Below are positions 2,411 to 29,355 of a stretch of DNA of 29,355 bases, one piece after another. Positions within the stretch are counted from its first letter, which is position 1. Every line of letters begins with the position of its first letter. The translations under genes were made by a program, and so were the position numbers. The stretch is from a virus (lineage: Duplodnaviria; Heunggongvirae; Uroviricota; Caudoviricetes). The notes below the pieces were generated by a model. That model had not been told where the DNA came from. It worked only from the letters and a program-made list of their open reading frames with translations, and did not search any database. Location: the IMG/VR virus record IMGVR_UViG_2541047722_000019; one strand, 5' to 3'.

Positions 2411-2485
2411 GATTGTGCTCCTGTGTAAGTTCAGGGCAGTATGTCGGGAGAAGCGCGTGACGGATATTAAAGGAGATTAAGAAGA

Positions 2486-2501: not shown

Positions 2502-2507
2502 GTGATG

Positions 2508-2789: not shown

Positions 2790-2791
2790 CG

Positions 2792-5891: not shown

Positions 5892-5892
5892 G

Positions 5893-6231: not shown

Positions 6232-6240
6232 AACGCCTCC

Positions 6241-7194: not shown

Positions 7195-7208
7195 GCTCTC
7201 TCCTTAAA

Positions 7209-8460: not shown

Positions 8461-8492
8461 GGCTGTAAAGCCTTTATAAAGGTAATACAGCC
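8461..8492 (-). terminator. Dyad-symmetry hairpin with T-tract after the G-like gene
   Basis: GGCTGTA ... TACAGCC arms enclosing the palindrome CTTTATAAAG, followed on the minus strand by TCTGTTTTAT. Lies 47 nt after the stop at 8539. Confidence 0.45.
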
Positions 8493-8538
8493 CCTCATTC
8501 GCTGGCAATGATAAATCACCCGCCTGAAGAGAGAAAAC

Positions 8539-8997: not shown

Positions 8998-8999
8998 TG

Positions 9000-9821
9000 T
9001 TATCCTCTCAGTTCCTGTTGTGCCAGTGGCTGAAGCGTACCCTGATAGCGGGCCAGGTCGGGACGGTATGCTGCCCCCGGTGCATAAGACCAGCCGACGT
9101 CGGTGGTCACCTTCGTGGTGCCGGTATTAAAGGTGGCCACGTTCCGCATTTCGCCGGTTTTCTCTGAGACCAGTTTCAGTTCCTGGCCCATGGCAGAGCC
9201 GGAGCTGATAACCTTCAGGCCACGGGCACGGACATCCGCCGCACTCAGGGCAATCACACTACAGCGGCAGCGCCAGCCGTTCGGCGGGTAAAATGCCTGC
9301 CAGAACGGGTCATCCCAGCGCAGCACCAGACCATGCAGCGCCAGATGGCTCCTGCGGGTATGGCTGTCGTTGATGCCGGTATACATCCAGTACGGCCTGT
9401 CGTCGACGTTTTCCATCTGCTCCGCCCAACGACCGGCGCTGTAGAGTACGGACATATTGGTGCGAAAGATGGTGTCGAGCCGCCACGGGCTGCCCTGCTG
9501 AATGGTGACCGGCTCACCCGTTACCGGGTCAGTCGTGTCACGTGGTCCCCACCATCCCTTACGCTTCAGCACCGGCTCCAGCTCCTGCCGGAACCAGCGA
9601 TCGGTTTTTCCTTCATCGACAGCCTGCTGCAGTGCCCCGCGAATATCTTCCAGAATATCCAGGCGGGTCACTTTAGCGACGGTAAAGGCGCGGGCATGGG
9701 CTTCCTGCCACATTTCTTCCCAGTCCCAGGTAATCTGATACCCTTTGGACTTCAGGTAACTGACTGCCCGCTTCGGGGGAAGCGTCATGCAGTACGCCAG
9801 TTCAGCCGTTGTCACGCTCAT
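9000..9821 (-). CDS. Head morphogenesis protein (Mu F family)
   Basis: Contains the NGWRCRCSV (N-x-x-R-C-R-C) motif typical of Mu F-like proteins. The track start is TTG at 9848; ATG 9821 with GGGGG upstream is preferred; ATG 9788 is an alternative. Confidence 0.7.
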   Translation of the reverse strand: MSVTTAELAYCMTLPPKRAVSYLKSKGYQITWDWEEMWQEAHARAFTVAKVTRLDILEDIRGALQQAVDEGKTDRWFRQELEPVLKRKGWWGPRDTTDPVTGEPVTIQQGSPWRLDTIFRTNMSVLYSAGRWAEQMENVDDRPYWMYTGINDSHTRRSHLALHGLVLRWDDPFWQAFYPPNGWRCRCSVIALSAADVRARGLKVISSGSAMGQELKLVSEKTGEMRNVATFNTGTTKVTTDVGWSYAPGAAYRPDLARYQGTLQPLAQQELRG

Positions 9822-11298: not shown

Positions 11299-12821
11299 CA
11301 GAATCCCTCCAGCATACGGGCCGCCTGACGACGACGGCGTGAGCTTGCCTTCACCGGCCCTTTGTTAATTTCACGGCTGGCGAAATACGCCAGCGCCAGT
11401 GCGATGGCTGAATCCCCGTGACGTTTACCACCATCAGCCTTTGCTTTTGAGCGTTGCTCCGGCACGCGGGGGACACCGTTCACCACCTGAACGGCCCGCA
11501 GGTCATCCAGTGTGTCTTCATCCTTTGGTAAGTCCACCAGGTTACCGTCTTCCAGTGCAGCTTTGACCGGAGGCATATGCTCCCGGTACCAGCCTTCGGT
11601 TGGCATCACCTGCTGAACCCGGCCGGAGCCGTAGCGCTGCATGGCGTATTCAGCCAGATAGGCACCATTACCACGGGCATCAAACGCTGCACCCAGCAGA
11701 CCGGGCAGGCCATCCATCAGATACCAGGTGATTTGCTCCTGCTGCCTGAACGGCACGTTACGCAACTCCAGTACGAATGGCACGCGTCGTATCAGGTTCT
11801 TCTCCTGCAACAACGGGTAGTCCACCGACAAATCCCCGCTACGGCCAAAGTCACGCCCCAGAAAAGAGCGGGCACCAGCGGGGAGCGCCTCCAGTAATGG
11901 TTTCAGATGCTCATCAAGCCAGTCCTGCGTCTCGCGGAAGCGAACCTCATCAGACAGCAGTTCATAACCTTCCTTGCAGGTCAGACGCAATACCGGCGTA
12001 TCAGCGGACATGCGGGACTCTATCAGGGCTCGGGACAGCCAGGCACCGCCACCGTTGGCCGGAATACAGTCAAGCTCTTCGGATGCACCGGCACCGTAGA
12101 ATTTGTACACCGACGCCATCCAGGCCTGCTCGGATGCCTCCGACCATTCCTTCCCGGTGCGCAGACAAACGCGCCGGAACAGCCCCTCAGATACGGCTTC
12201 CCGGAAAGTGATGCGATGTACGCTGCCTCCCTGACGTCCGGCACGGATATCCCCGATAAGCGTATTGAACGGATTGTCGTCACCGTCATGGGTGGAGATA
12301 ACGCGTACCTTTCCCCCCCAGATAAGCATCGCCAGCGCCGCTTTCAGCAGTTCGTCCAGTTGCTCATGGAACGCCGCTTCGTCGATAACAATAATACCCT
12401 GACGGCCACGCAGGTTAGACGGGCGGCTGGAGAGCGCAACAATACGAAAGCCGGAGTCAGGAAATTTGATGGTGTAAGTCCTGATGTGTTTGTCGTCGTC
12501 GTCCTCTTCCCAGAATCCTTCTTCAATTTCACTGGCCGCATAGTTGAATGCCCGTGCCCACATCGCACACGCCTGAATGTATTCGACGGTCATGTCCTGG
12601 TTATAAGCGATGTAATACACATTCATCCCGCCTGCTGGCGCAGAAGAGGCGGCGGTCAGTACGTTATCGGATGCCTCAGCCCATGTAATACCGGTACGAC
12701 GGCTCTTTTCTATCACCTTAAGCGGAGAGGCATCTGCCACCCAGCGCTGCTGGTAGGGCAACAGAACGGGAGGGGCCTTATAACTCGCGGTGTCAGGAAT
12801 GTGCGGCGGCAGCTCCGTCAT
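11298..12821 (-). CDS. Terminase large subunit
   Basis: 507 aa; terminase-type P-loop variant KSRRTGIT and Walker B IIVIDEAAF; acidic EEDDDD linker. Start overlaps the upstream gene (ATGA). Confidence 0.8.
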   Translation of the reverse strand: MTELPPHIPDTASYKAPPVLLPYQQRWVADASPLKVIEKSRRTGITWAEASDNVLTAASSAPAGGMNVYYIAYNQDMTVEYIQACAMWARAFNYAASEIEEGFWEEDDDDKHIRTYTIKFPDSGFRIVALSSRPSNLRGRQGIIVIDEAAFHEQLDELLKAALAMLIWGGKVRVISTHDGDDNPFNTLIGDIRAGRQGGSVHRITFREAVSEGLFRRVCLRTGKEWSEASEQAWMASVYKFYGAGASEELDCIPANGGGAWLSRALIESRMSADTPVLRLTCKEGYELLSDEVRFRETQDWLDEHLKPLLEALPAGARSFLGRDFGRSGDLSVDYPLLQEKNLIRRVPFVLELRNVPFRQQEQITWYLMDGLPGLLGAAFDARGNGAYLAEYAMQRYGSGRVQQVMPTEGWYREHMPPVKAALEDGNLVDLPKDEDTLDDLRAVQVVNGVPRVPEQRSKAKADGGKRHGDSAIALALAYFASREINKGPVKASSRRRRQAARMLEGF

Positions 12822-13360
12822 GATACCACCCCCAGAATTTCCCGGCGCAGTGCCTGTACGGCTTCCGCAGAGAGCCCGCCCTTACGGGCAATTTTCTCGG
12901 CGGCAGCGGCAGCACGTTCAACCCTCTCTCTGACTTCTGCCTGATAGCGCTTGAGGTTGACCGAGGCGCGGGTCAGTGTGGCGATATTTTTTGAAGCCGT
13001 TGCCAGCAGTTTTGCCCGGGCGAAGGGATCGTCGTTTTCCCGCGACTCCTGCAGGCGCATCAGGATATCCGTCATTTCGGTCTGGACGAGGGTTATCAGC
13101 CCGGCTGAACGGTCATCAGGATCGTCTCCGGCCTCCCGGGCAAGCAGACGCGCTGCCTCGGTTGCCGCCCGCACCCGGGCCAGTTGCTGCTCCATTTTGT
13201 AGCCAAACCGCTGCAGGGAAGAGCGGGTGATGCTGTACCCCTTTTCCTTCAACAGACTTTCAAGCTCTGCATAGCCGGTGAAATTATTCTCCGTCAGTGC
13301 CCGCTCAAGCCAGCGACGGACCTCCTTCGGCAGAGAATCAATGCTGCTGCGACGTCCCAT
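12818..13360 (-). CDS. Putative terminase small subunit (Mu gp27-like by position)
   Basis: Basic/helical protein directly upstream of the large terminase. The track ORF starts GTG at 13366; first ATG is 13360. Confidence 0.55.
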   Translation of the reverse strand: MGRRSSIDSLPKEVRRWLERALTENNFTGYAELESLLKEKGYSITRSSLQRFGYKMEQQLARVRAATEAARLLAREAGDDPDDRSAGLITLVQTEMTDILMRLQESRENDDPFARAKLLATASKNIATLTRASVNLKRYQAEVRERVERAAAAAEKIARKGGLSAEAVQALRREILGVVS

Positions 13361-13362
13361 AA

Positions 13363-13674
13363 TCACTCACTCCAGTATTTTTCCGGGCGGGCAATACCGG
13401 GGCCGCATTCCACGGTGTATTCCACAATATCCACACCAAGGCGACTCAGATCGGCAAACCAGTCACCGGAAGGCCTCTTCTCCAGTTCCACCATCTTGCG
13501 ATCTGCCAGGTAATCAAGCTCACGGCGCAGCTCCAGTTGCGTGGTGTCCGGGTAGATGGCGCGGGACACTTCCAGCAGCAGCGTCTCGCTGGCGGTATAA
13601 GGGCGGGTTTTGTTCAGGGCAACCAGCAGACTCCAGCGCAGGGATTCGCGGCGTACCCGGGTAATATCGACCAT
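13363..13674 (-). CDS. Hypothetical protein
   Basis: 103 aa; ATG overlaps upstream stop; between lysis cassette and terminase genes. Confidence 0.4.
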   Translation of the reverse strand: MVDITRVRRESLRWSLLVALNKTRPYTASETLLLEVSRAIYPDTTQLELRRELDYLADRKMVELEKRPSGDWFADLSRLGVDIVEYTVECGPGIARPEKYWSE

Positions 13675-14000
13675 TATTGACCTCCGGTATTGCGGTACTG
13701 CTGTACCACTTCCAGTTTGTTGTAGAGCGCGTCCAGTTTGGCCTCGATGACTGTCTGGCCACGGATATAATCCTCGCGACGGACATAATTCAGCGGTAAA
13801 TCCGCTTTAAATCGCATAAATTCTTTTTCCAGTTCGCCCCAGTTGGAGGCGGACTGTTGCAGGGCCTGCTCAAGGGAGGCGAATCGTGCCGCCTGGCGTT
13901 CTTCTGTTTTACTGAACAACCATTTGGCGAGCCCTCCCACAAACCCCATGAAGGTGAGCAAAAAACTCACCACCGTCCAGAATTCAACCTGCAGTGTCAT
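13674..14000 (-). CDS. Membrane-anchored coiled-coil protein (possible lysis accessory)
   Basis: 108 aa with N-terminal hydrophobic segment FWTVVSFLLTFMGFVGGLAKWLF then a helical region; GGAAGGA upstream of ATG; immediately after the spanin pair. Confidence 0.4.
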   Translation of the reverse strand: MTLQVEFWTVVSFLLTFMGFVGGLAKWLFSKTEERQAARFASLEQALQQSASNWGELEKEFMRFKADLPLNYVRREDYIRGQTVIEAKLDALYNKLEVVQQYRNTGGQ

Positions 14001-14650
14001 TTCTGTAATCCTTCCCGTTCATCCAGTAGCGCGTTTATCTGGTTTCGCCAGCGACGACATTGCCCTGCGTTGTCGATGATGTTGGCAAGGACGTCAAGCT
14101 GGGAGACACCCGAATTGCGTAACCGGGCGTCAGCGGTTTCAGGTTGCCCGGTCGCTGCGCCAGTGCCGGTGCCAGCGGCGGCAACTGAGTCTGAATGACC
14201 GGTGTCGACGGATGCGTTGTCGTATCCGAGTGCGGCGTTGTACTGGCGCACGAAACCGCGAGTAAACACGCACTCAATGGGATGGCTCTTACCTTTTTCA
14301 TCAATCCAGCGCTGTGTGACATCGTTAATTTGCCCCTGTAGTTGTTTGTTCTGGTCCTCCAGTTGAGCAATCTGCTCAAGATAACCAGCTTCAGCCCGTT
14401 GCCCGGCGGCTACCTGCTCCTGATAACGCTCAGACCATGCGCGCAACGCCGCCACCTCACGCCGGGCCTGTTCTGCCCGGTATCCGTCAAAATCCGCCTG
14501 CAGGCGGCTGAGCGCCGCCTGACCGTCAGCGGAGGCCCGGTCGTGGCCTGTGCTGTATCCCAGCCACCAGATCGCCAGCAGGAAGGTGTTCAGGAGAATG
14601 GCCAGCATAATGACCCGCCACGGCAGCGACCGTAACTTACGTACCCACAC
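13997..14650 (-). CDS. i-spanin (Rz-like)
   Basis: Short basic N-terminus then TM (RKLRSLPWRVIMLAILLNTFLLAIWWLGY), followed by a long Q/A/E-rich coiled-coil. GTG 14650 has GGGGAGGGG upstream; in-frame alternatives are ATG 14752 and ATG 14608. Confidence 0.6.
   Translation of the reverse strand: MWVRKLRSLPWRVIMLAILLNTFLLAIWWLGYSTGHDRASADGQAALSRLQADFDGYRAEQARREVAALRAWSERYQEQVAAGQRAEAGYLEQIAQLEDQNKQLQGQINDVTQRWIDEKGKSHPIECVFTRGFVRQYNAALGYDNASVDTGHSDSVAAAGTGTGAATGQPETADARLRNSGVSQLDVLANIIDNAGQCRRWRNQINALLDEREGLQK
14035..14301 (-). CDS. o-spanin (Rz1-like lipoprotein) embedded in the i-spanin gene
   Basis: Alternate frame wholly inside 13997..14650. Lipoprotein signal MKKVRAIPLSACLLAVSC followed by a Pro/Thr/Ser-rich periplasmic domain. 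Confidence 0.6.
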   Translation of the reverse strand: MKKVRAIPLSACLLAVSCASTTPHSDTTTHPSTPVIQTQLPPLAPALAQRPGNLKPLTPGYAIRVSPSLTSLPTSSTTQGNVVAGETR

Positions 14651-15374
14651 AGCTTGCCCCTCCCCATGAGAGATAACGCGGGGCCAGCGTGAACAGGATG
14701 CGCTGGGGATAATGACGGTTCTCCCGCCAGCTGGCAGTGCTGCGTCCGGCATTCACCGTGGCGACATGACCAAACCAGCGGGTGCTGTCCAGCCCTTTTT
14801 GTGATGCAAGCCGCCTGTCCCGCTGTACCCAGCCCAGACCACCGTTATAGCCCGACAGTGTCATGGCCATACGCTCGCAGTCACTGGCGGCGCTGACGCG
14901 CTGCCACAGCCAGCGGTCATAGCTGACCAGCGCCCGGATGGCCCATGCCGGATTAAATGGCTCACGGCTGTTAAGCCCCGGCATCAACTGACTTATCCAG
15001 TCGGCGGTGGCGGGCATGAACTGCGCCAGTCCCTGAGCGCCAACCGGCGAGATCGCATCAGGTCGCCAGCCGCTTTCCTGATGCAGTTGCGCAGCGAAAT
15101 CAGCCACCGGCGCAGACAGTCCCCATTCAAGCCGGGCATTACGGATCACATCATCGCGATACTGCAGCGCTGCCTGCGGAGGCTGCGCTGCGCGGGCCTG
15201 ACTGAAGAAGCCGCCACACCAGAGCAACATTGCGACAAAGAATACCCGTGCCATATGAACCAGAAAGGTCCCGGCGCGGACTGACAGGCGTTCGGTTCTG
15301 ATGAAGACCCTAAAGGCTTCGAAAGCCAGTTTCAGGGACATGCATACAATCCAGGTGATCTGCGGCCAGTTCAT
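14637..15374 (-). CDS. Endolysin, lytic transglycosylase with N-terminal signal or SAR-like segment
   Basis: Family-1 transglycosylase motif HQESGWRPDAISPVGAQGLAQFMPATA. Hydrophobic N-terminal segment MARVFFVAMLLWCGGFF. True start may be ATG 15254 (M41) rather than 15374. Confidence 0.75.
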   Translation of the reverse strand: MNWPQITWIVCMSLKLAFEAFRVFIRTERLSVRAGTFLVHMARVFFVAMLLWCGGFFSQARAAQPPQAALQYRDDVIRNARLEWGLSAPVADFAAQLHQESGWRPDAISPVGAQGLAQFMPATADWISQLMPGLNSREPFNPAWAIRALVSYDRWLWQRVSAASDCERMAMTLSGYNGGLGWVQRDRRLASQKGLDSTRWFGHVATVNAGRSTASWRENRHYPQRILFTLAPRYLSWGGASCVGT

Positions 15375-15376
15375 GA

Positions 15377-15727
15377 TTAAAGCCCCATCGCAACAGCCAG
15401 ACAGACCGCTGCAACAATCAGTGCACGGCGGATTAACGCAGCAGAAAACACCAGGTGAAGGCCGGTCTGTACCGGGAAACGCCCATCAGCCATCAGCCTG
15501 TCGTCATGTTTCAGGTACTGACCGGGACGGGCTTTGGGGAAGAGCGAACGGTCAAGCCAGTAACCCAGCACTGCTGCCAGCGTGATGAGTGCCAGCTTGT
15601 AGATCACAACAGGCAACTGCTGTGGCGAGACCAGAGCGATGGTGCCCAGCAACAGCACTGAGGTCAGCAGCCAGCCGCTGAGGCGAGGTTTTTTAACAGG
15701 GGGAATGAATTTTTTCAGGTTTTTCAT
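15377..15727 (-). CDS. Holin-like membrane protein (first late cistron)
   Basis: Three predicted hydrophobic helices. ATG 15727 has GGAG 6 nt upstream; the track ORF extends to GTG 15760. Sits directly upstream of the endolysin gene. Confidence 0.45.
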   Translation of the reverse strand: MKNLKKFIPPVKKPRLSGWLLTSVLLLGTIALVSPQQLPVVIYKLALITLAAVLGYWLDRSLFPKARPGQYLKHDDRLMADGRFPVQTGLHLVFSAALIRRALIVAAVCLAVAMGL

Positions 15728-15857
15728 GTGTGTCTCCTTGTCTGGTGGAGACAGCATCACAAATACAGGGCGCGAAGGATTTTAAAGCGCGTTAAGAGAG
15801 CCGGGGATACGGGATGTGCAGGATAAACGATGAATTATTCACAGAGGAGAATACGAT
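15728..15857. promoter_or_regulatory. Divergent promoter region (late operon leftward, cargo operon rightward) with RBS-overlapping inverted repeat
   Basis: 130-bp gap between divergent starts 15727 (-) and 15858 (+). Perfect inverted repeat TGTCTCC(9)GGAGACA at 15731-15753, whose one arm is the GGAG ribosome-binding site of the late gene. Confidence 0.4.
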
Positions 15858-16601
15858 ATGACGCAGACACTGAATCCGGTCATCACTGTCACCGTGTCCG
15901 GTCCTGTGGGCAGCGGTAAAAGTTACATATTGGCGCGGATAGAGGAAGTGGTGAAACAGGAATTCGGGGGCAGCGTCATTGTCGATGCTGCAGACGTAGA
16001 TGATGAGCGGCGTATGAGTGGCGATGATCTGACGACCTGGCAGAAGCCACGGGGTGGCACAGTGATCAGGCTGGAGGAATACACGGGACAGGGCCTGTTG
16101 TCATACGGCGAGGAGCGTATCTGTCGGACGAATGAGCTGCTGGATGTTATATGCCCCACGGGCCGGCAACCCTGGATACTGCCCGATGCACTGCATGCCA
16201 CCATTGCGGCACTGATGACAGTTTACGATCAGGAGCTGCTCATGAAGGAGCTACGTAAACTCACCGGTCAGCCAACAGAATGTTTTTCTGCCCCGAAGTA
16301 CGGGAAACAGGAACACATCCCGGTGAACACGCTCCCCGTTAACCAGCCTCCCCGGTTCTTCGACGAATACATTCTGACACCGGAAAATAAAGCTGAGCAC
16401 GAAGAGATCAAAGCGGCGTTGTTCCGGGAAATCAGGAAGATTGCTGAAATGCAACTGGGGGGCGGGCTGGACAGAGTGATGGCGAGAGGAGAATGGGAGT
16501 CGCTGTTTGAAAGAGTTTCCCCGGAATTACTTCCCCTCGCACTGGCTATCGGGATTATGCAGACAGCGGATAAACCTCACTTACGTTCATTAAACACGTA
16601 A
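15858..16601 (+). CDS. P-loop NTPase of unknown function
   Basis: ATG with AGAGGAGA 7 nt upstream. Walker A GPVGSGKS at residues 15-22. No resemblance to phage structural, lysis or transposition proteins that I recognise. Confidence 0.6.
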   Translation: MTQTLNPVITVTVSGPVGSGKSYILARIEEVVKQEFGGSVIVDAADVDDERRMSGDDLTTWQKPRGGTVIRLEEYTGQGLLSYGEERICRTNELLDVICPTGRQPWILPDALHATIAALMTVYDQELLMKELRKLTGQPTECFSAPKYGKQEHIPVNTLPVNQPPRFFDEYILTPENKAEHEEIKAALFREIRKIAEMQLGGGLDRVMARGEWESLFERVSPELLPLALAIGIMQTADKPHLRSLNT

Positions 16602-16981
16602 CGCATAATCCGGGATACGCATTCAGCGATGACTGCATTTTCACCGGTTTTTACTGCATCCAGAAGTGACTCTTTAAATGGTGCGGGCCGGGGCTGCAGA
16701 AGGGTCGGCGTGGCATTGAGCAGACGGAGCGTTTTTTCCGTGAGGACGACATCAGCCGCTCCCACAGCCAGCAACTGAGAGTAACGAATATAGCTGTTAT
16801 CCCGAAGCCATATCAGCGTATCAATAAAATACCGGCACTTTTTCTGGTCGTGATCAACCTGGTCCGGGATATCGAAAAAACCAGAATAAATCAAAACCTG
16901 AGGTGCCGGATGCGTGTTCAGTAATCGGCAGAATATTTTGCCGGTGAGTGCATAAAAATCATCATTTAAGGAGTGCATCAT
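16577..16981 (-). CDS. Hypothetical protein, convergent with and overlapping the P-loop gene 3' end
   Basis: 134-codon ORF that exactly fills the 378-bp stretch where the plus strand has no ORF. 3' ends overlap by 25 bp (16577-16601). Lower GC by eye. Confidence 0.4.
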   Translation of the reverse strand: MMHSLNDDFYALTGKIFCRLLNTHPAPQVLIYSGFFDIPDQVDHDQKKCRYFIDTLIWLRDNSYIRYSQLLAVGAADVVLTEKTLRLLNATPTLLQPRPAPFKESLLDAVKTGENAVIAECVSRIMRYVFNERK

Positions 16982-17195
16982 GAATCCCCGATTAACGTTA
17001 ACAGAACATCAGCGCCGTGCTGAAGCAGTGAACAATGTTCTGGAAGATATTATCCGGTTACATCGCGGAGAACTGAGTGTCTGTCGTGCCGCTTTTCATT
17101 TTCAGGGAATACAAAAGCAGTTTGATACTTCTGTTTTTGCAGAAGGTATTACTTATGCCCTGGACCGGATAAGGTCAGAAAATCGCCCCGGATAA
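16980..17195 (+). CDS. Small hypothetical protein
   Basis: 71-aa ORF with AAGGAG 7 nt upstream of ATG. Its start codon is back-to-back with the start of the minus-strand ORF, so both are unlikely to have independent promoters. Confidence 0.3.
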   Translation: MNPRLTLTEHQRRAEAVNNVLEDIIRLHRGELSVCRAAFHFQGIQKQFDTSVFAEGITYALDRIRSENRPG

Positions 17196-17251
17196 TCCCT
17201 AAACCACATTAACAGAAATCCCACTATCCCTGCCGCATCATGAAAGAACGA

Positions 17252-17282
17252 CCAGCCCGGTGCTTCGGACCCACCGGGCTGG
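17252..17282. other. GC-rich perfect hairpin (11-bp stem, CTTCGG-containing loop)
   Basis: CCAGCCCGGTG-cttcggacc-CACCGGGCTGG. No clean T-tract on the plus strand; a weak one (TCGTTCTTTCA) on the minus strand. Confidence 0.35.
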
Positions 17283-17386
17283 CCATCGTCCCACAGAAGT
17301 GGCTGTGAGCCGACCGAGGTTCAGTCAGTCTCGCGAGACCAGACTAGCCTGCCATATTTTTAATAATTGTAAAAGGCTTACAGATT

Positions 17387-18151
17387 ATGAAAATGAAGAC
17401 ATTACCCATCGTTCCATGGATTGGTGGCAAACGTCGCCTGGCAAAACACATCCTGCCGCTGTTTCCGGCGCATGAATGTTATGTGGAGCCGTTTTGTGGG
17501 GCAGCAGCGCTCTATTTTCTTAAGACACCCGGCAAGATCGAAGTCATCAATGATATCAACGGTGAACTGGTGAATCTGTACCGGGTGGTAAAGCATCACC
17601 TGGAAGAATTTGTCCGCCAGTTCAAATGGGCGCTGGTCAGCCGTCAGATCTACAAATGGCTGCAGATCACCCCGGAAGAAACACTGACGGATATCCAGCG
17701 TGCGGCACGGTTCTACTACCTTCAGAAGCAGGCGTTTGGCGGCAAGGTGGCAGAGCACAGCTTCGGTACCTCCACCACATCCCCGCCACGCTTCAACCTG
17801 CTGCGTATTGAAGAAGAACTGTCAGCAGCACACCTGCGGCTTTCCAGAACAGTCATAGAACACATGGACTGGCAACAGTGCATTGAGCGTTATGATCGTC
17901 CGCACACACTGTTCTACTGCGACCCACCGTACCTGGGTACGGAAGGCTATGGTGTGGATTTTCCTGAAGGGAACTACTCGCGGCTGGCAGAGCTGGCCCG
18001 GTGCATCAGAGGAAAAATGATAATTTCGGTGAACGATATCCCACAGATGCGCGAGGTGTTCACTGGACTGAACATACAGACAGTGAACATCAACTACAGT
18101 CTGGCGGGGAAATCTACGCCGCGCCGTGAACTGGTAATCTGCAACTTCTGA
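17387..18151 (+). CDS. dam: N6-adenine DNA methyltransferase, Dam family (orphan, no adjacent restriction gene)
   Basis: N-terminal WIGGKRRL and VEPFCGAAALYF (SAM-binding motif I) plus FYCDPPY catalytic motif. 254 aa, close to E. coli Dam in size and motif order. Confidence 0.85.
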   Translation: MKMKTLPIVPWIGGKRRLAKHILPLFPAHECYVEPFCGAAALYFLKTPGKIEVINDINGELVNLYRVVKHHLEEFVRQFKWALVSRQIYKWLQITPEETLTDIQRAARFYYLQKQAFGGKVAEHSFGTSTTSPPRFNLLRIEEELSAAHLRLSRTVIEHMDWQQCIERYDRPHTLFYCDPPYLGTEGYGVDFPEGNYSRLAELARCIRGKMIISVNDIPQMREVFTGLNIQTVNINYSLAGKSTPRRELVICNF

Positions 18152-18267: not shown

Positions 18268-18606
18268 TCAGCCTGCGAGTTTGCTTGGTTTGGGTTGAAT
18301 GAAGACTTTGCCGACCTCAAGAATTGCCCTCCGTTGTTCGGGGCTCATTTCGTCGAATGCATCCATTAACTCTTTCTTTTCTTGTGACACATAAGGTGCA
18401 ACAACAGGCTGACTCCGCACCCCAGTAACTACATACAAAATATCTACACCGATTTCTGATAGTGCAGATAACTGCACTGCAGTAGGAGAAGTGCGATCTT
18501 TTTCCCAATCAATGAAAGTTCTCTTTGCCACACCTATAGCATCAGCCAACCCTTGCTGTGTAAGAGATAGACGCTCTCTTTCTTCTTTAATACGTAACCC
18601 GATCAT
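18268..18606 (-). CDS. Prophage repressor, HTH XRE family
   Basis: MIGLRIKEERERLSLTQQGLADAIGVAKRTFIDWEKDRTSP is a classic XRE helix-turn-helix. The track ORF starts with GTG inside the divergent ner-like gene; ATG 18606 is the likely start and has no obvious SD (possibly leaderless). Confidence 0.7.
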   Translation of the reverse strand: MIGLRIKEERERLSLTQQGLADAIGVAKRTFIDWEKDRTSPTAVQLSALSEIGVDILYVVTGVRSQPVVAPYVSQEKKELMDAFDEMSPEQRRAILEVGKVFIQPKPSKLAG

Positions 18607-18706
18607 GTGAGTTTTTCTGCACTCTTTAAGTTGACTGGTGAGGTAATCTGCACCATAATCTATCACACATAAGGCAAACATCATTGCATCAACAAAGGAG
18701 ACAACG
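18607..18706. promoter_or_regulatory. Switch region: early promoter and candidate operators
   Basis: Near-consensus sigma70 promoter on the plus strand: TTGACT (18631-18636), 17 bp, CATAAT (18654-18659). Direct repeats TCTGCAC at 18616-18622 and 18647-18653, the second inside the spacer. Confidence 0.45.
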
Positions 18707-18895
18707 ATGACTGCAGAACAAGTCAAAGCTCTCTTCCGCCAGCGCGGGATCACTTTCACCCGCTGGGCAGAAGAAAACGGCTACAACCGCAATGAGGTAT
18801 ACCGCGTTCTCAATGGGCAGACCAAAGCCCGTTACGGTAAATCCCATGAAATCGCCGTGAAGTTGGGGCTGAAATCAACAGCTCAGGCAGCCTGA
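18707..18895 (+). CDS. Ner/Cro-like small DNA-binding regulator
   Basis: 62 aa, AGGAG 6 nt upstream, first gene of the early operon divergent from the repressor. Residue pattern RQRGITFTRWAEENGYNRNEVYRVLNG parallels Mu Ner. Confidence 0.55.
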   Translation: MTAEQVKALFRQRGITFTRWAEENGYNRNEVYRVLNGQTKARYGKSHEIAVKLGLKSTAQAA

Positions 18896-18947
18896 AGATT
18901 TTGAGTCTTTGTAAAAGGTTATCACATATCGCAAAAGAGGTATGCAG

Positions 18948-19256
18948 ATGAGTAAGACGAATGTTTCAAGCTCCGGCAGTCGCATCCTCCGGGTACTCAA
19001 AGCGCTGCGCGGTCATGCCCTGAACGGTATTTCCAACGGTGAACTGGCGGCAGCACTGCACGAGTCACCGGCAAACATCAACCGGGCACTCAACACCCTC
19101 ATTGAAGAAGGGTTGGCCCTGAAACTGGAAAACGGGCGTTTCGCGCCGGGCATCCAGTTACTGCAGATCGCTATGGCCCACAGTAACGAGATGGCACGTG
19201 CACAGGATCGCATTAACGAAATCAACCAACGTGTCATTTCAGGTAGTCGTTTGTAA
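18948..19256 (+). CDS. Winged-helix-like small DNA-binding protein
   Basis: Segment RILRVLKALRGHALNGISNGELAAALHESPANINRALNTLIEEGL looks like a wHTH. Start taken at the second ATG (18948), which has better SD spacing to AAGAGG. Confidence 0.45.
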   Translation: MSKTNVSSSGSRILRVLKALRGHALNGISNGELAAALHESPANINRALNTLIEEGLALKLENGRFAPGIQLLQIAMAHSNEMARAQDRINEINQRVISGSRL

Positions 19257-19266: not shown

Positions 19267-20178
19267 ATGGGACGCACCAAATCACCGATTAACACTGAAC
19301 TGAACGCCGAGGTACCGCTGTCGGATGATCTCAATGTCAGTCTGAACGCCATGACACAGCATCGTATGGAGATCATGCAGCAGTTTGGCGATGGTCAGCC
19401 CTATGAGCGTGATCGCATAGTTCATGAGGCTCGGTTTTATATGGCACAGAGCGCTGAGGCCATGCTGGAAGCAGGTAAACGACTTATTATTCTCAAAGAA
19501 AATGAACCTCACGGGGACTTTGTTGGAATTGTAGAAGAACAACTTGGTCTGCATGTGCGCGCAGCACAACGAATGATGAAAGCATCTTTGAAATACCTTT
19601 CACCAAAACTAGAGCCAAAAGCGACAACGTTGTCGCTTTTAGGTAAGGCAAAATTATTTGAACTTGTTGCTGAAGATGACGACGACCTTGCTGAACTGGC
19701 CGACGGTGGCACAGTTGCCGGACTGACGCTTGACGATGTTGATCGCATGTCAGTACGTGAATTGCGTCAGGCCCTGCGCGAAGCGCGCGAAACCAACGCA
19801 GCACAACAGCGCGTACTCGCCGACAAAAATGAAAAAATAGACTCACTCTCCACCAGACTGGAGAAGAAATCCCGTATTCAGCCACCTGAGCCTGATGAAG
19901 AGGTGAAGAAACTGCGGGCAGAAGTGACCGCGTTAGCGGTTGAGGCGGAATCTGCCATCGCCGTTCGACTGTCCAGCGCTTTTGAGACGCTGTGCGCATA
20001 TTGTGCTGAAAACATGATTGATACCCCCAGAGACTTCATGGCAGGCCTGGTCTGTCAACTGGAAAGCACAGCGCGTAGCCTGCGCTCCACATTTGACCTG
20101 CCGGACGAGCCAACAGGCAATGCAGCGCCTTCATGGCTGACTGAGCCGACGCCACAGATTAACGGGCTGGAGGCATAA
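19267..20178 (+). CDS. Hypothetical early protein, acidic with coiled-coil segments
   Basis: 303 aa, AAGGAG 6 nt upstream; stop 3 nt before the transposase ATG. No motif recognised. Confidence 0.5.
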   Translation: MGRTKSPINTELNAEVPLSDDLNVSLNAMTQHRMEIMQQFGDGQPYERDRIVHEARFYMAQSAEAMLEAGKRLIILKENEPHGDFVGIVEEQLGLHVRAAQRMMKASLKYLSPKLEPKATTLSLLGKAKLFELVAEDDDDLAELADGGTVAGLTLDDVDRMSVRELRQALREARETNAAQQRVLADKNEKIDSLSTRLEKKSRIQPPEPDEEVKKLRAEVTALAVEAESAIAVRLSSAFETLCAYCAENMIDTPRDFMAGLVCQLESTARSLRSTFDLPDEPTGNAAPSWLTEPTPQINGLEA

Positions 20179-20181
20179 CCA

Positions 20182-21951
20182 ATGAATGCTGCCCTGACTG
20201 AACGACTGGTTTATGTCGCCCGCGCGGCACGTGACGCGGGGCATGGTAAACGCGGCGCAGTATACGACGCTGCCTGTGCTGAACTTGGCATGTCCCGCGC
20301 CACTCTGCTGCGCAGGCTGAAGGAGGTATCTGTGACTGATAAACGCAAAAAACGCGCCGATGCCGGGCGCAGCGCCCTGACCCGCGACGAAGCCGCGCTG
20401 ATATCTGCCACACTGCGTGAGGCCACCCGCAAGAACGGTAAGCGTCTCTATTCCATCGCGGATGCAGTGGAAACCCTGCGGGCTAACGGCTTTATATCCG
20501 CAGGCAGAACAGATGAAACCACCGGTGAGTTTTTCCCGTTGTCCGAAGATGCCATCAGCCGAGCCCTGCGTAACTATGGCCTGCACCCGGAACAACTGGA
20601 TGCCCCTGCGCCGCATACCGAAGTGGCCAGTCTGCATCCCAATCATGTCTGGCAGATTGACGCCTCACTCTGCACGCTTTACTACCTGAGCAATGGACAT
20701 AAAGGGCTGCAGGTGATGGACAGCGCGAAGTTCTACAAGAACAAGCCCGCTAACCTTGCCCGTATCGCCAGTGACCGCGTGTGGAGTTACGAGATTACCG
20801 ACCATGCCAGCGGCTGGATTTACGTTGAGTATGTGACGGGCGCGGAATCAGGTGAGAACCTGTGTTCTGTGCTTATCAACGCCATGCAGGAGCGTGGCGG
20901 CGCAGACGTGCTGCACGGTGTGCCGAAAATACTCTATCTCGACCCCGGCTCGGCAAACACCGCGGGTATGACGAAAAACATGTGCCGCTCACTGGGCATC
21001 GACCTGATAGCGCACAAGCCGCATAACGCCCGCGCCACCGGACAGGTGGAAAAGGCGCGGGACATTATCGAACGCAAGCTGGAGCCGGGTCTGAAGTTCC
21101 GGCCGGTTCACAGTCTGGAAGAACTCAACGCGCTGGCCGCGAAATGGCGCAGCCACTTTAACGCCACGGCTGTTCACAGCCGCCACGGTAAAACCCGCAC
21201 GGATATCTGGCTGAAGATTACTGCTGAGCAGCTGAAAAAAGCGCCTTCCGTTGAGGTATGTCGTGAACTGGCTGTGGCGGCACCAGAACTCCGCAAAGTC
21301 ACGCCAAAACTTCGTGTCTCGTTCCGGGGCACTGAATTTGACGTATCAACGGTACCGGGCGTACTGGTTGGTGAAAAACTGATGATTACCCGTAACCCGT
21401 GGCGCAGCGATGTGGCACAGGTGGTTCTGACCGGTGAGGACGGCCACGAGACGTTCTTCCTGGTCGAAGAGGTCAGAAAGAACGAGTTTGGCTTTGCTGA
21501 AGGCGCGGCGGTATTTGGCGAAAGTTACAAAGCCCTGCCGGAAACCCCGGCGCAGATGGCGGCAAAAGAAACCGAAGCGCTGGTCACCGGTACAGACAAC
21601 GCCGCAGATGCAGCTGCCGCACGCAAGGCGAAGGCGCTGCCGTTCGGCGGGCGGCTTGACCCGTATAAACATATCGACGACACCACACTTCCGGCCTATA
21701 TGCCGAAGCGTGGTCAGGCCTCTGACGTACGCGGGCCGCGCACTGAACAACGTCCCATGACTTATGTGGAGGCCGCGAAAGCCCTGCGCGATAAGTTCAG
21801 CGCCAACGGCTTTACCTGGACGCCGGAACATTACCGCCAGTTAACGGCACAGTATCCGGACGGCGTACCGGAAGCCGCACTGGATGAAGTCATGGCCACG
21901 CTGACCACGCCGGCCCGCAGCAGCGTTATCAGTATTGTTAACGGCAACTGA
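20182..21951 (+). CDS. DDE transposase (retroviral-integrase fold)
   Basis: 589 aa. Catalytic triad candidates D in HVWQIDAS, D in LYLDPGS and E in GQVEKARD, with exactly 35 residues between the second D and the E. GGAGG SD. Confidence 0.85.
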   Translation: MNAALTERLVYVARAARDAGHGKRGAVYDAACAELGMSRATLLRRLKEVSVTDKRKKRADAGRSALTRDEAALISATLREATRKNGKRLYSIADAVETLRANGFISAGRTDETTGEFFPLSEDAISRALRNYGLHPEQLDAPAPHTEVASLHPNHVWQIDASLCTLYYLSNGHKGLQVMDSAKFYKNKPANLARIASDRVWSYEITDHASGWIYVEYVTGAESGENLCSVLINAMQERGGADVLHGVPKILYLDPGSANTAGMTKNMCRSLGIDLIAHKPHNARATGQVEKARDIIERKLEPGLKFRPVHSLEELNALAAKWRSHFNATAVHSRHGKTRTDIWLKITAEQLKKAPSVEVCRELAVAAPELRKVTPKLRVSFRGTEFDVSTVPGVLVGEKLMITRNPWRSDVAQVVLTGEDGHETFFLVEEVRKNEFGFAEGAAVFGESYKALPETPAQMAAKETEALVTGTDNAADAAAARKAKALPFGGRLDPYKHIDDTTLPAYMPKRGQASDVRGPRTEQRPMTYVEAAKALRDKFSANGFTWTPEHYRQLTAQYPDGVPEAALDEVMATLTTPARSSVISIVNGN

Positions 21952-21961: not shown

Positions 21962-23128
21962 ATGCTGGTACTGAAGCAGCAACTGAAAGAAGCCCGTATT
22001 CCACAGGCGGTGGTGGCGAGAGCTGTCGATGTTTCTGAGGCCACGCTGGCCCAGATTGTGAATCATAACGCGTGGCCCCGCACCAGCCCCGGAGAAGTGC
22101 GCCGGCGTCTTGCGTCCTGGCTGGAAAGTCAGGGGATTGATACAACGAAGAGTTTTGATGCTGTACAGGGCGCGGCCACGCCCCGTACAGCGGGTACCAC
22201 AGATAAAACGAGCCTCAGTGAGGAAGAGAATATGTTACTCAAAAAACAGGTGTTATTTCCAGCAACCAAAAAAGCGTTTGGTCTTTTCCGTGACCCGTTC
22301 GCCGACGAAGCCATGCAGGGTTCTGATGATGTGTTCACCACCCCGGATATTCGCTACGTGCGTGAGGCGTTGTACCAGACAGCCCGTCATGGTGGGTTTA
22401 TGGCCGTCATCGGTGAGTCCGGTGCGGGTAAATCCACGCTGCGCCGCGACCTGACTGAACGTATCAACCGCGAGAATGCGCCGGTAATTGTTATCGAGCC
22501 ATACATCATCGCTATGGAAGACAACGATGTGAAAGGGAAAACCCTGAAGGCAGCAGCGATTGCCGAAGCCATTATCAGTACCATCGCACCACTGGAAAGC
22601 ATCAGACGCAGTCAGGACGCCCGCTTTCGCCAGTTGCATCGCGTCCTGAAAGACAGCAGCCAGGCGGGGTTCAGCCACGTTCTGGTGATTGAGGAGGCCC
22701 ACAGTCTGCCCATTCCGACACTGAAACACCTCAAACGCTTTTTTGAGCTGGAGTCCGGTTTCAAAAAACTGCTGTCCATCGTGCTGATTGGCCAGCCGGA
22801 ACTGGCGACAAAACTGTCTGAACGCAATATGGAAGTCCGTGAAGTCGTTCAGCGCTGTGAGGTGGTCGAACTTCTGCCTCTGGACAATAACCTTGAAGAG
22901 TTTCTGACGTTCAAACTGCAACGGGCCGGTAAACAACTGACGGACATTATGGACGCCAGCGCAGTGGATGCCATACGTGCCCGCCTGAGCAATCCGGGAA
23001 GTCATCGTAAAAATATGGTCAGCCTGCTGTATCCGCTGGCCGTCAGTAACCTGGTAATAGCCGCCATGAATCTGGCCGCTGAAATCGGGGTTCCACAGGT
23101 CAACGCTGACGTTGTCAAAGGGGTTTAA
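21962..23128 (+). CDS. Transposition ATPase (MuB / TniB-like)
   Basis: Walker A GESGAGKST and Walker B-like HVLVIEEAH. ATG 21962 with GAGGAGGGA upstream (the track ORF starts at TTG 21935). Immediately downstream of the transposase. Confidence 0.8.
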   Translation: MLVLKQQLKEARIPQAVVARAVDVSEATLAQIVNHNAWPRTSPGEVRRRLASWLESQGIDTTKSFDAVQGAATPRTAGTTDKTSLSEEENMLLKKQVLFPATKKAFGLFRDPFADEAMQGSDDVFTTPDIRYVREALYQTARHGGFMAVIGESGAGKSTLRRDLTERINRENAPVIVIEPYIIAMEDNDVKGKTLKAAAIAEAIISTIAPLESIRRSQDARFRQLHRVLKDSSQAGFSHVLVIEEAHSLPIPTLKHLKRFFELESGFKKLLSIVLIGQPELATKLSERNMEVREVVQRCEVVELLPLDNNLEEFLTFKLQRAGKQLTDIMDASAVDAIRARLSNPGSHRKNMVSLLYPLAVSNLVIAAMNLAAEIGVPQVNADVVKGV

Positions 23129-25945: not shown

Positions 25946-26387
25946 ACAACGTCTTATCCAGCTCATTCATATTGCCCGTAATGAACTGGGTATGGATGAA
26001 GACACCTACCGCCAGATGTTACAGGGGCTGACCGGTAAAGCCTCAACCAAAGGAATGGATACCACACAACTAAACTGCGTGCTGGAATCCATGAAAAGGA
26101 AAGGCTTTCGCGTTAAGCCTGCCGGAAAAGCCAGCTCCGGTTTACCGCTGGATAACCATCCGCAGTCCAGGAAAATCCGTGCGCTATGGCTTGAAATGGC
26201 TGCTGCCGGCATTGTTCGTGACCGTTCAGAAAATGCATTAGCGCGGTGGATCAAGCGGGAAACGGGCATCAGCGCCCTGCGCTGGCTCAGTACTGAACAG
26301 GCAAGCAGTGTTATTGAGAAACTGAAGAAGTGGCAGCGCAGAGCTGCGGGAGTCAAACATGAGCGACCTGAATCAGTTTCGAAGTAA
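25934..26387 (+). CDS. GemA-like early protein
   Basis: ATG with AAGGAG upstream; immediately upstream of the Mor-like gene, as gemA is in Mu. Confidence 0.55.
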
Positions 26388-26757
26388 AGGGCCGGAACTC
26401 CTGGTGGAGCTGGCACAGCATACCTCTGAGACCGTTCGCGAGATTATTGATATTGAGCCCGCAATTGCCGACCAGATTGGTCAGGCCGTCGCGAACCGAA
26501 TGATGCAGGTCTGGGGCGGGCAAAACGTTTATTTCCCGATGGGCATGGTATGGAAGGTCAGTCAGCGCGACCGGGAAATCTTCAGGGAGTTTAACGGACG
26601 CAACCACCACGAACTGGCCCGCAAGTTTGGTGTTTCGCTTCAGTGGGTCTACAGCGTGGTTAAGCGGGTCAGAAAAGAAGAACTGGATCGGATGCAGGGC
26701 AGGTTGTTTGATGAAGATCTGCCAGAGGAGACGAAAGACGTTAACAAATCCAGATAA
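26359..26757 (+). CDS. mor: Mor/C-family transcriptional activator
   Basis: 132 aa; GGQNVYFP and FNGRNHHELARKFGVSLQWVYSVVKRVR match the Mor/C C-terminal DNA-binding region. Last early cistron. Confidence 0.8.
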   Translation: MSDLNQFRSKGPELLVELAQHTSETVREIIDIEPAIADQIGQAVANRMMQVWGGQNVYFPMGMVWKVSQRDREIFREFNGRNHHELARKFGVSLQWVYSVVKRVRKEELDRMQGRLFDEDLPEETKDVNKSR

Positions 26758-27507: not shown

Positions 27508-27669
27508 TTATTTTTTCCCTGGGGCAGGGGCTGCCGGCATAGTGGTTTTATTGGCAGAGGAAGACGATTCTCCTTTTCTACCGGAATCGCGCTCGAACGT
27601 CACGATGTGCTTGCTTTTGGGCTTTTCTGAGTAATCCAGGCTATCATGCTTATTGTTTTGAGTAGTCAT
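27508..27669 (-). CDS. Possible 53-aa hydrophilic ORF convergent with the membrane protein gene
   Basis: ATG with AGGA upstream; MTTQNNKHDSLDYSEKPKSKHIVTFERDSGRKGESSSSANKTTMPAAPAPGKK. Short and partly low-complexity, so could be spurious. Confidence 0.2.
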   Translation of the reverse strand: MTTQNNKHDSLDYSEKPKSKHIVTFERDSGRKGESSSSANKTTMPAAPAPGKK

Positions 27670-27819
27670 TGGAATCATCCTTTTTGTTGCGGGTCATGTT
27701 TCAGCAAACTCGATTCTAAGTTGCCAGGAAGGATGATTTCAATGCCCGACTTATCTATCGTATAGCGGAAAAGAATTTCAGTTCTGTTCACCAGAACCCA
27801 TGTTAACCCACTCCAATTC

Positions 27820-27865
27820 GTTATTTATCTCACGGATCCCCCTTCATTTATCTCATGTCTGATCA
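27820..27865. repeat. Prophage terminus with direct repeats (candidate transposase-binding sites)
   Basis: ATTTATCTCA occurs at 27823-27832 and 27846-27855, with a related CTTATCTATCG at ~27750. On the host-facing strand the element end reads 5'-TGATCAGACATGAGATAAATG. Confidence 0.45.
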
Positions 27866-29355
27866 CTGCCGTGAGCAGAGGCGCGCAGGATCGACCGTAG
27901 TTGTGTGGTAAACAACGACGCGTATTCTTCATAAATACGCACCGCGCGATAACCGAGGAACGGGTTAGCTTCTGCCGGAATGTTCAGATAATCAACGGGT
28001 TTATCACCGCCAATGTCCATAGTGCGCACAATAATGCTGCGTCCGTTGGCAGACTCCAGCGCCTGACAAAAAATGTTGTACAGCTCGCTTTCGCCCGGTG
28101 CACTGGTGCGATCCATATAGAGCATTTCAGTGCGGAACAAACCAACGCCTTCCGCACCATTGCCGAATGCGGCCTGCGCTTCCACGGAGTGAGCGATGTT
28201 AGCGGCAATTTCAATGCGGATACCGTCAGCGGTACGCGCTTGCTGGGTCAGCCAGACACGCTGTTGCTCACGCAGAGCGTCCTGTACGCGGGCTTCTTGC
28301 TGATAATAACGGGCCACGGATTCCCCTGGCTCAACCACAATCGCCCCTGCGTTGCCGTCGATATAAATCGTCTGATGCTGCCACGGAGTAAGGGCAGCAA
28401 TATCCACACCTACCAGCGTCGGAATGTTGAACGAACGGGCAAGGATCACAGTATGTGAGGTGGTGCCGCCACTTTTCAGTAACAGACCTTTGAGATGATT
28501 TTTATCCAGTTCGAGGAACTGGCTGGGGGTCAGTTCATCAGCCATACAAATGGCGGGCTGCGTCAGTTTGCCCGGTGCCGGGAAGCGTTGCTCACCGTAG
28601 ATTTGCTGGAGTAACTGGAAGCAGACGTCGCGTACGTCCAGGGCACGTTCTTGCAGGTAGCTGCTGCTGGAACGGGCGAACTCTTCGCAAAAGTGATTCG
28701 CACTGGCAACAATCGCTTCGGCGCAGCTTAATCCGGCGCTGACACCTGCCAGTAAATGTTCGCGCAGGGAAGTATCGCCAGCCAGGGATCGGTGCGCTTC
28801 CAGAATCGCGCTGGTAGCACCGTCGCTATCCAGCAGACGAAACTCTATGTTTTTCAGTACCAGCGTCAGACCGTTTTCCAGTGCGGATTGTTCGGCGTCA
28901 ACGCCTTTGGCTGCGGGAAGATTACCCAGCGCATTGAGATCTAAAGAAGAGATCGGCGTCAGAATGCCGCCTGCGCTACCACTGCACACGGTGCGAGCAC
29001 GGATAATTTGCGGATTCAGATTGGTCAGTGAAACCGGCAGTGGTTCCAGTTCGTCAGATTTTACTTCCGCCAGCGGTGCGTCGCAGTGGGGGAATTCATC
29101 GCGCAGCCATTGGCTTAAACGCTGGTACGCTTCCTGTTCGTCGGCCCCGGAAATCAGTAACTGGCAGTTATCGCCCACCAGCGTATCGGTGCCAATCAGC
29201 GCAAGGGCGCTTTTGGCGTTGCCCTTGCGGTCAGTGCGCAGGTTATGCCACTCAATTTGTGATGAAAAAGTATTACACAGCGTTTCAACGTGGCTTGCCG
29301 GACGCGCATGGACGCCGTTAGGTAGCTCACAAATAAATTCCACAATCAGGGCCAT
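27866..29355 (-). pseudogene. ptsA: Host PTS multiphosphoryl transfer protein (HPr-Enzyme I fusion), 5' ~1.5 kb only, interrupted by prophage insertion
   Basis: HPr signature GVHARPASH at the N-terminus, EI phospho-His motif GGTTSHTVILARSFNIPTLVG, and PEP-utilising motifs GAEGVGLFRTEMLYMDR and NPFLGYRAVRIY. The reading frame ends at ...LRASAHGSDQT*, mid-domain. Symbol is from recollection of the E. coli PtsA/FrwA N-terminus; a FryA-type paralogue is not excluded. Confidence 0.6.

Follow-up and report, generated by a model that had tools for sequence, protein, structure and literature searches.

Paired direct repeats, predicted to bind transposase, at the left end of a BcepMu-type prophage in Escherichia coli

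The transposable phages BcepMu and phiE255 (Bcepmuvirus) carry “23-bp imperfect direct repeats” at both genome ends, proposed as putative transposase sites (Ronning et al. 2010, PMC2920897), a description that PMC2920897 attributes to Summer et al. 2004 (J Mol Biol 340:49). The KS10 paper (PMC2628397) describes BcepMu-type elements as having TG...CA termini and an rve transposase related to Tn552. Here, we describe the end of such an element in IMG/VR virus record IMGVR_UViG_2541047722_000019, a stretch of 29,355 nucleotides from a virus of the Caudoviricetes (the window). In all probability, the window contains the early, or “left”, end of a BcepMu-type transposable prophage of ≈38.3 kb that has transposed into the E. 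coli gene ptsA. The 10-mer ATTTATCTCA occurs twice, 23 bp apart, next to this end, and we put at roughly 0.8 the probability that the two repeats are paired transposase docking sites, a prediction made from sequence comparison. Since the BcepMu and phiE255 end repeats have already been published, this is an E. coli member of an end architecture that was previously described, and since the BcepMu architecture has been on record since 2004, the biological addition is small. To our knowledge, the E. coli sites themselves have not been described so far.

The repeats were originally picked out from the letters of the window as two copies plus a third related copy, next to a TG...CA-type end. The two copies and the CA-type end were borne out, whereas the third copy proved to be at chance level. 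With respect to the original prediction, the element is of the BcepMu type and not of the Mu type, it has two sites per end, and binding of the sites by the transposase, TnpA, is a step that we infer.

The prophage terminus and its paired sites

The terminus of the prophage was defined by the adjoining host DNA. Matches to uninterrupted E. coli ptsA began at position 27866 in 5426 of 5426 complete genomes, none extended leftwards past 27866, and the DNA from 27866 on was 100% identical to ATCC 11775. Thus, the last phage base is 27865 and the prophage/host junction is 27865|27866. The sequence from 27745 to 27865 reads ...GTTATTTATCTCACGGATCCCCCTTCATTTATCTCATGTCTGATCA|CTGCCG across this junction, and the phage 3′ end reads ...TGTCTGATCA-3′ (...TGATCA-3′), which is a CA terminus. 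The position of the terminus is also indicated by the TGATCA start, which was identical in six independent insertions, and by the TGA at positions 1–3, counted inward from the phage end, which is nearly invariant in 20 thinned ends of the family (see below). The features of this end (End A) and of the adjoining host gene are as follows:

27863–27865, minus strand: phage terminus, 5′-TGA when read inward, corresponding to ...TCA-3′ on the plus strand; cleavage and strand transfer presumably take place at the terminal CA-3′.
27846–27856, minus strand: outer (terminal) site A1, ATGAGATAAAT, inward positions 10–20; includes the ATTTATCTCA copy at 27846–27855.
27834–27845, minus strand: variable 12-bp spacer, GAAGGGGGATCC (read inward), of low information content across the family.
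27823–27833, minus strand: inner site A2, GTGAGATAAAT, inward positions 33–43; includes the ATTTATCTCA copy at 27823–27832.
27866–29355, minus strand: 5′ part of the host ptsA gene, interrupted by the prophage (PGAP name “ptsP”, frw locus).
27866–27871, plus strand: predicted 6-bp target-site duplication CTGCCG in host ptsA, as judged from 6 of 6 complete insertions.

Read inward, End A consists of TGATCAGAC followed by A1, the spacer, A2 and AAC, with the site cores GAGATAAAT. The two ATTTATCTCA copies, which are placed 10 bp inside the junction and have a start-to-start distance of 23 bp, are the only ones in the window. They also constitute its only exact local direct repeat of at least 10 nt within 50 bp, for which first-order Markov simulations gave an expectation of 1.07 per window; with one mismatch allowed, ATTTATCTCA had 3 matches compared to 0.95 expected. 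By itself, the 10-mer repeat is therefore within chance expectation. In its context, however, it is highly non-random, because it has an inverted counterpart at the other end of the prophage, because its two copies rank first and second against a cross-genus weight matrix, and because it is conserved in ≈50 related ends in which the spacer varies.

The phage part of the window, 1–27865, is the larger part of the prophage. The left host flank of ptsA had no match in the window, placing the other prophage end outside it. A location of that end within the window was considered and rejected, both on account of the unmatched ptsA flank and because the window starts inside repeats of the tape-measure gene. 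The original prediction had proposed looking for the same repeat in inverted orientation at the other end, and this could be done on complete copies that are 99.99% identical to window 1–27865, such as the one in strain G749 (locus L002), which matches the window in one collinear block. The opposite end (End B) bears G(C/T)GCGATAAAT at offsets 10–20 and 33–43, inverted, with GATAAAT in inverted orientation at both offsets. Read inward, End B consists of TGATGCGCC, GCGCGATAAAT, GCACTCTATCTT, GTGCGATAAAT and GGC in succession (abridged, TGATGCGCCGCGCGATAAATG...GTGCGATAAATG), and the start offsets of its 11-bp cores, 10 and 33, are those of End A. The two ends match at 27 of the first 46 positions, and these matches are clustered in the TGAT and the two cores. 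The opposite end thus carries an inverted, related repeat, equally far from the cleavage point.

The terminal 1166 bp of the phage recurred in 118 complete E. coli genomes, inserted at many different loci, and all matches ended on the same terminal base. Annotated genes at the junctions vary between genomes and include an amino-acid permease, irp1, yfaV, kefF, yodD, clbG and a protein with a GspL domain. Six complete copies at six loci all had TGATCA...GCATCA termini, and all six were flanked by 6-bp direct duplications of unrelated sequence (CATTCC, GCTTAA, GCAAGT, GTTGCG, TCCTGT and GCGCGG). The element moves by transposition, with TG...CA termini and a 6-bp stagger. By extension, the other phage end, which is outside the window, would be bordered by a second copy of CTGCCG.

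Pathogenic E. coli commonly carry this prophage, which disables genes at random; some copies adjoin or interrupt irp1, clbG and kefF, and the present one interrupts ptsA. An exact definition of its ends therefore aids the annotation of such disruptions. The present case also confirms that a transposable-phage end can be recognized by reading the raw sequence. The left terminus is fixed at 27865, and a 6-bp duplication is predicted.

The disrupted gene, ptsA, has 833 codons and lies beside frwC, frwB and pflD. Its truncated open reading frame (ORF) enters the phage by 13 nt and ends at a TGA stop codon at 27853–27855, within site A1. In this frame (27853–27865), the 500-residue N-terminal fragment that remains of the host protein gains four phage-encoded residues (…HGSDQT*).

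Conservation of the sites in related prophages

A scan of one genome per species with the TnpA alignment yielded 80 loci with 51–94% identity, taken as 10-kb flanks around tnpA. The strict two-site pattern was found in 28 of the 80, with a single match in each, always on the transposase strand and 3.4–6.3 kb downstream of tnpA (starting at locus positions 15118–18084, with tnpA ending near 11770). By our own calculation, ≈0.01 matches per locus would be expected by chance. The DNA outside position 1 was unrelated between loci. Use of a weight matrix recovered ≈25 further ends, some of them with a 22-bp spacing in Photorhabdus and Xenorhabdus.

The conservation footprint was derived from 20 ends of other genera, thinned at 85% identity and representing Enterobacterales, Burkholderiales, Neisseriales and Pseudomonadales. 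Information was high at positions 1–3 (TGA), 10–20 (GTGAGATAAAT) and 33–43 (GcGAGATAAaT), and low in the spacer at 21–32; the same two conserved blocks with a variable spacer were seen in ≈50 related prophage ends. In the inward direction, the consensus of the family is TGA-N6-G(T/C)G(A/C)GATAAAT, with the core at 10–20 repeated at 33–43 (+23). When the matrix, trained solely on the 20 ends of other genera, was applied to the 29-kb window, A2 ranked first with 20.0 bits, the maximum possible, and A1 ranked second with 15.7 bits. In the 40-kb locus L002, which contains the whole prophage, the top four matches were the four end sites. The A1 offset is also occupied in E. coli End B and in the left as well as the right end of both BcepMu and Pseudomonas phage B3.

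The third related copy of the original prediction (CTTATCTATC, 27750–27759) is physically present, and is listed here with its flanking base:

27749–27759, minus strand: GATAGATAAGT (read inward), probably a chance match outside the site system.

It scored 6.2 bits and ranked 28th in the window, where ≈19 matches of at least 6.9 bits are expected by chance. The relatives had no counterpart at this position, and in a plasmid-borne relic of the phage end (see below), both main cores were kept while the third copy was mutated. A role as an L3-like site was rejected on these three grounds. Nor did either E. coli end show further matrix matches of at least 7 bits within its terminal 200 bp. The number of sites per end is two, not three.

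Both TnpA and the neighboring ATPase are orthologous to BcepMu proteins. TnpA is 68% identical to BcepMu gp09 over 581 residues (full length), the ATPase is 59% identical to gp08, and the TG...CA termini are shared. In both phages, as in B3, the early operon is inverted relative to Mu and reads towards the left end, finishing with GemA and Mor. BcepMu likewise has two sites per end at offsets 10–20 and 33–43, with an almost identical core, G(T/C)G(A/C)GATA(A/T)(A/T)T; its left end reads TGAAGAGAGGTGAGATATTTCC...GCGCGATATTTCC and its right end TGAAGCGCGGCGCGATATTTCA...GCGCGATAAATTC. The differences are in the terminal bases (TGAAGA in BcepMu, TGATCA in the E. coli phage), in the spacers and in the host. 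At the right end, the E. coli phage has a Gin-like invertase and an invertible tail-fiber segment, and at the left end, it has an extra membrane protein and a small ORF. Escherichia phage PhiKM, which is filed under Bcepmuvirus, is 95% identical to the early region of the prophage.

The relationship to B3 (Beetrevirus) is more distant, with a transposase that is 56.6% identical over its full length and an early operon that is inverted in the same way (PMC5977238). The offsets are retained in the B3 cores, GTGAGAAATAC/GCGCGATAAAG at the left end and GCGCGAAATTT/GCGCAATAAAT at the right, but these cores are more degenerate (7.7–12.1 bits), and the inner site at the right end is shifted by 1 bp. 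B3 also differs in being a siphovirus with other tail genes.

The consensus can be used to pinpoint the ends of BcepMu/B3-type prophages. Deposited phage records often trim or misplace such ends, and the consensus could serve to complete or correct them. In the record of Klebsiella phage KP12 (OM835952.1), ≈45–55 bp are missing at each end, including all four site cores. KP12 is filed under Vequintavirinae, though its genome is of the BcepMu type.

A 145-bp solo fragment ≈90% identical to the phage end was found in ≈70 conjugative plasmids of the IncF type from E. coli, Klebsiella and Citrobacter (L095 2501–2644, corresponding to NZ_CP019909.1 36274–36417 and to window 27712–27856). The fragment retains both ATTTATCTCA cores intact, with a diverged spacer and differences in the last ≈9 terminal bases. 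It adjoins a LysR-type gene, and phage genes are not adjacent to it. Either it was left behind by an old insertion or it has been co-opted.

In addition, an internal “pseudo-end” was detected at L002 38120–38153, ≈690 bp inside the real right end and outside the window, where the matrix gave two matches (10.5 and 10.8 bits) that are oriented as in End B and separated by 23 bp. There is no TGA at the right distance. The pseudo-end is located directly upstream of the gene for the Gin-like recombinase (L002 38185–38757), and its inner match overlaps a sequence similar to the gix/hix crossover consensus. It was read as the inversion site combined with a chance match, and is probably not a functional end.

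The transposase and alternative roles for the repeats

The genes of the conserved transposition module that bear on the function of the repeats are:

20182–21951, plus strand: tnpA, a 589-residue DDE (rve) transposase, the presumed site-binding protein.
21962–23128, plus strand: transposition ATPase, AAA_22/ExeA-like (AAA_22 E = 3.6e-20; phrog_296, “DNA transposition protein”).
18942–19256, plus strand: IclR-like winged helix-turn-helix (wHTH) protein.
19267–20178, plus strand: DUF3102 protein.

TnpA matched the Pfam rve domain with 35.8 bits (cut-off 32.6), and its D160, D254 and E290 residues were invariant in 30 homologues, in a DD35E arrangement. Rve was the only Pfam match, and none of the Mu-specific Pfam domains was found in TnpA. 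In a comparison of profiles, the TnpA family aligned to the Tn552 transposase p480 with an hhalign probability of 96.5% (E = 7e-10, 25% identity; TnpA residues 151–423 with p480 residues 155–409), whereas similarity to MuA was undetectable (probability 0.4%). The pairwise alignment of TnpA and p480 was marginal (E = 0.001 over 46 residues), with identity limited to the catalytic motifs. Among the NCBIfam models, those nearest to TnpA were the IS481 and IS21 transposases, both below threshold. Searches of the PDB sequences with TnpA and its family profile returned weak matches to retroviral integrase cores only, and neither MuA nor TnsB. As judged from these comparisons, p480 is a superfamily-level relative, and TnpA is not a member of the Tn552 type. 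The ATPase would be the functional counterpart of MuB.

In Tn552 (Staphylococcus aureus), both terminal inverted repeats contain a pair of directly repeated 23-bp motifs to which the transposase binds. Tn552 resembles the prophage in having two direct repeats with a 23-bp phasing next to its terminus, seen at one end on pMW2 (positions 4877 and 4900). The DDE core and the domain following it are homologous, and Tn552 too has an AAA-type partner, the ATP-binding protein p271. In contrast, the repeat sequence (CTTTAC...ATGAGAA) is unrelated, the N-terminal DNA-binding regions could not be aligned, and Tn552 is a transposon with a resolvase and not a phage. The second Tn552 end is absent from pMW2, on which the p480 gene is frameshifted. 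Tn552 makes duplications of 6–7 bp, and Rowland et al. in 1995 are said to have obtained p480 footprints on the 23-bp repeats.

With Mu, the prophage shares the logic of a transposable phage. Both have TG...CA termini and more than one transposase site at each end, and both encode an ATPase partner as well as Gam and Mor; the head and packaging module of the prophage is Mu-like, and so is the GGGA array next to its left-end site (see below). Mu, however, has three 22-bp sites per end (L1–L3 and R1–R3), of which L1 is separated from L2 and L3, compared to two adjacent sites here, and its early operon has the opposite orientation. The duplication made by Mu is 5 bp, compared to 6 bp for the E. 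coli phage. The family matrix found no match at the Mu left end and a single match of 8.7 bits at the right end, which, together with the lack of detectable similarity between TnpA and MuA, agrees with the original remark that the sites differ from those of Mu. A Mu-type att site was rejected, since the transposase family, the consensus, the number and arrangement of sites and the duplication length all fail to fit.

Homology to the p480 core and the presence of 23-bp repeats at the Tn552 end make a model with four TnpA protomers the best supported one. In this model, the ATTTATCTCA copies would form the cores of two 23-bp end sites that lie side by side as direct repeats, and TnpA monomers would bind the four sites (A1, A2 and their End B counterparts B1 and B2) through an N-terminal helix-turn-helix (HTH) region. 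Four protomers would then pair both ends in a tetrameric transpososome like those of Mu and Tn552, introduce nicks at the terminal CA-3′ and transfer the 3′ ends to target DNA, with a stagger of 6 bp, while the adjacent AAA+ ATPase may select or activate the target. The proposal that the repeats are transposase-binding sites at a transposable-phage end is supported by the inverted pair at the other end, by the observed transposition and by the presence of a DDE transposase with an AAA+ partner.

Several points weigh against this assignment. The N-terminus of TnpA did not align with that of p480 in the profile comparison, and its only HTH match, to HTH_8, was weak (E = 0.009) and below the cut-off. 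The second end of the window's own prophage was deduced from the copies with 99.99% identity. For loci selected by the pattern, the argument from conserved core positions is in part circular, although those from the conserved flanking positions, the single match per locus and its fixed location are not. In the papers searched, no member of the BcepMu family was found to have been studied by binding assays, footprinting or mutation of the sites, and the published statements on the end repeats are predictions from sequence (PMC2920897). Finally, the end-binding factor could be the IclR-like wHTH or the DUF3102 protein.

This last possibility is the main rival to direct binding by TnpA. One of these accessory proteins would occupy the sites and recruit TnpA, as might be suggested by the weakly predicted DNA-binding domain of TnpA and by the location of both accessory genes directly upstream of tnpA here, in BcepMu (gp12 and gp10) and in B3 (ORF14 and ORF13). 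We consider it unlikely, because the NCBIfam IS481 model aligns from residue 25 and spans the N-terminal HTH region of TnpA, and because in the characterized relatives (Tn552 p480, MuA and TnsB), the transposase itself binds the end repeats. The repeats might also serve as operators for a phage regulator (a repressor or Ner-like protein) or for a host factor at an inward-reading promoter (27742–27713), given that a sigma-70-like promoter with 10 of 12 matches and a small ORF lie ≈100–350 bp inside the end. This is very improbable, since the sites are conserved in relatives that lack the promoter and the ORF, recur beside unrelated genes at the opposite end, and persist across lineages with differing repressors.

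Even less probable is a role of the repeats as the pac signal for the small terminase. Mu-type phages package from the left end, which is the end considered here, and the small terminase is Mu gp27-like. A pac signal, however, is needed at one end only, whereas the sites occur at both ends, inverted and at a fixed distance from the cleavage point, and a separate array restricted to End A is a better candidate for pac. A functionless chance duplication could be invoked in view of the approximately one exact local 10-mer repeat expected per 29-kb window, but both this and an integrase-type att core are effectively refuted by the conservation of the repeats across both ends and the family, by the absence of an integrase from the prophage, and by the variable insertion sites with their 6-bp duplications of unrelated sequence. 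The reading of the repeats as paired docking sites for the transposase is therefore preferred.

The GGGA array and other features of the left end

Further features are found inside the paired sites, reading inward from the phage end:

27786–27820, minus strand: zone of helically phased GGG(A) motifs, inward positions 46–80, with its best conserved part, TGGGTTAACATGGG, at 27797–27810; candidate pac or accessory element.
27767–27780, minus strand: TGAAA-N5-TTTC (TG.AAA-N5-TT.C) element just inside the array, often a TGCAA/TTGCA palindrome in relatives.
27798 to 27780, minus strand: inward-reading, terminator-like hairpin.
27742 to 27713, minus strand: sigma-70-like promoter, TTGAAA-18-TAGAAT.
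27678 to 27508, minus strand: 56-residue ORF (phrog_15726, WP_001571575.1).
27667–27682 and 27729–27744: 16-nt inverted repeat, 94% complementary, which pairs the −35 region with the ribosome-binding site and start codon of the ORF.

The GGGA array lies directly inside A2 and is not part of the paired sites. In the family, its motifs are located at positions ≈46, 56, 67 and 77, or ≈10.3 bp apart, and they are partly degenerate in the window. The array, seen also at loci L006 (1–110), L092 (1–110) and L097 (30–105), shows conservation in groups ranging from Enterobacterales to Burkholderiales and Pseudomonas. End B of the E. coli phage lacks it, and in B3, it is likewise found on the left end only; the BcepMu right end has a single GGGA. 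A similar array occurs at the Mu left end at 33–66, between L1 and L2, where the sequence reads CCGGGAG..TTGGAT..CGGGAT..TGGGAT, followed by GCTTGCAAGCCTGTAGTGCAA. The L1–L2 interval is where the pac site of Mu was mapped. The small terminase of the prophage (12818–13366) is 27% identical to Mu gp27 over its full length (E = 2e-12) and 53% identical to BcepMu gp27.

The array is a good candidate for pac because it is restricted to End A, because a similar array is present at the Mu left end, and because the terminase is homologous to Mu gp27. We give even odds to the proposal that the array, together with the TGCAA/TTGCA-like element, is the pac of the family and homologous to the pac region of Mu. 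If so, Mu-type packaging modules would have kept their cis signal while the transposase and its sites were replaced by an unrelated module of the Tn552/IS481 type, which would constitute a natural example of cis/trans modular exchange at a single phage end. It would also provide a sequence rule for locating the left ends of transposable prophages. The phased array at End A might be the sole part of the present findings that is new.

The TGAAA-N5-TTTC element overlaps the T-rich tail of the terminator-like hairpin. The inward-reading features between 27508 and 27798 could insulate the phage from host read-through.

GATC sequences are present at the terminus (27860–27865, TGATCA) and in the spacer (27835–27840, GGATCC), and the phage encodes a Dam-like DNA adenine methylase (17387–18151). 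End use might conceivably be controlled by methylation, by analogy with IS10 and IS50. Against control by Dam, the family does not conserve the GATCs, and many of its ends read TGATTA, TGAGGG or TGAAGA.

The remainder of the window has the layout of a Mu-like phage head with a P2-like tail, encoded on the minus strand from 1 to 15760. A repressor gene at 18268–18759 (minus strand) is followed by the rightward early operon, comprising genes for a Ner-like HTH protein, the IclR-like wHTH and DUF3102 proteins, the rve transposase, the AAA_22 ATPase and Gam, and further on gp16/GemA and Mor (26359–26757). A membrane protein is encoded between Mor and the phage end at 27865. A scan of the whole window against Rfam gave no match.

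At its other extremity, the window starts inside 261-bp tandem repeats of the tape-measure gene: positions 1–101 match three places ≈261 bp apart in this gene (L002 28265–28886). The tandem repeat is variably annotated as a split gene or a pseudogene in several genomes, and it is probably the reason why the window, or contig, starts at this point.

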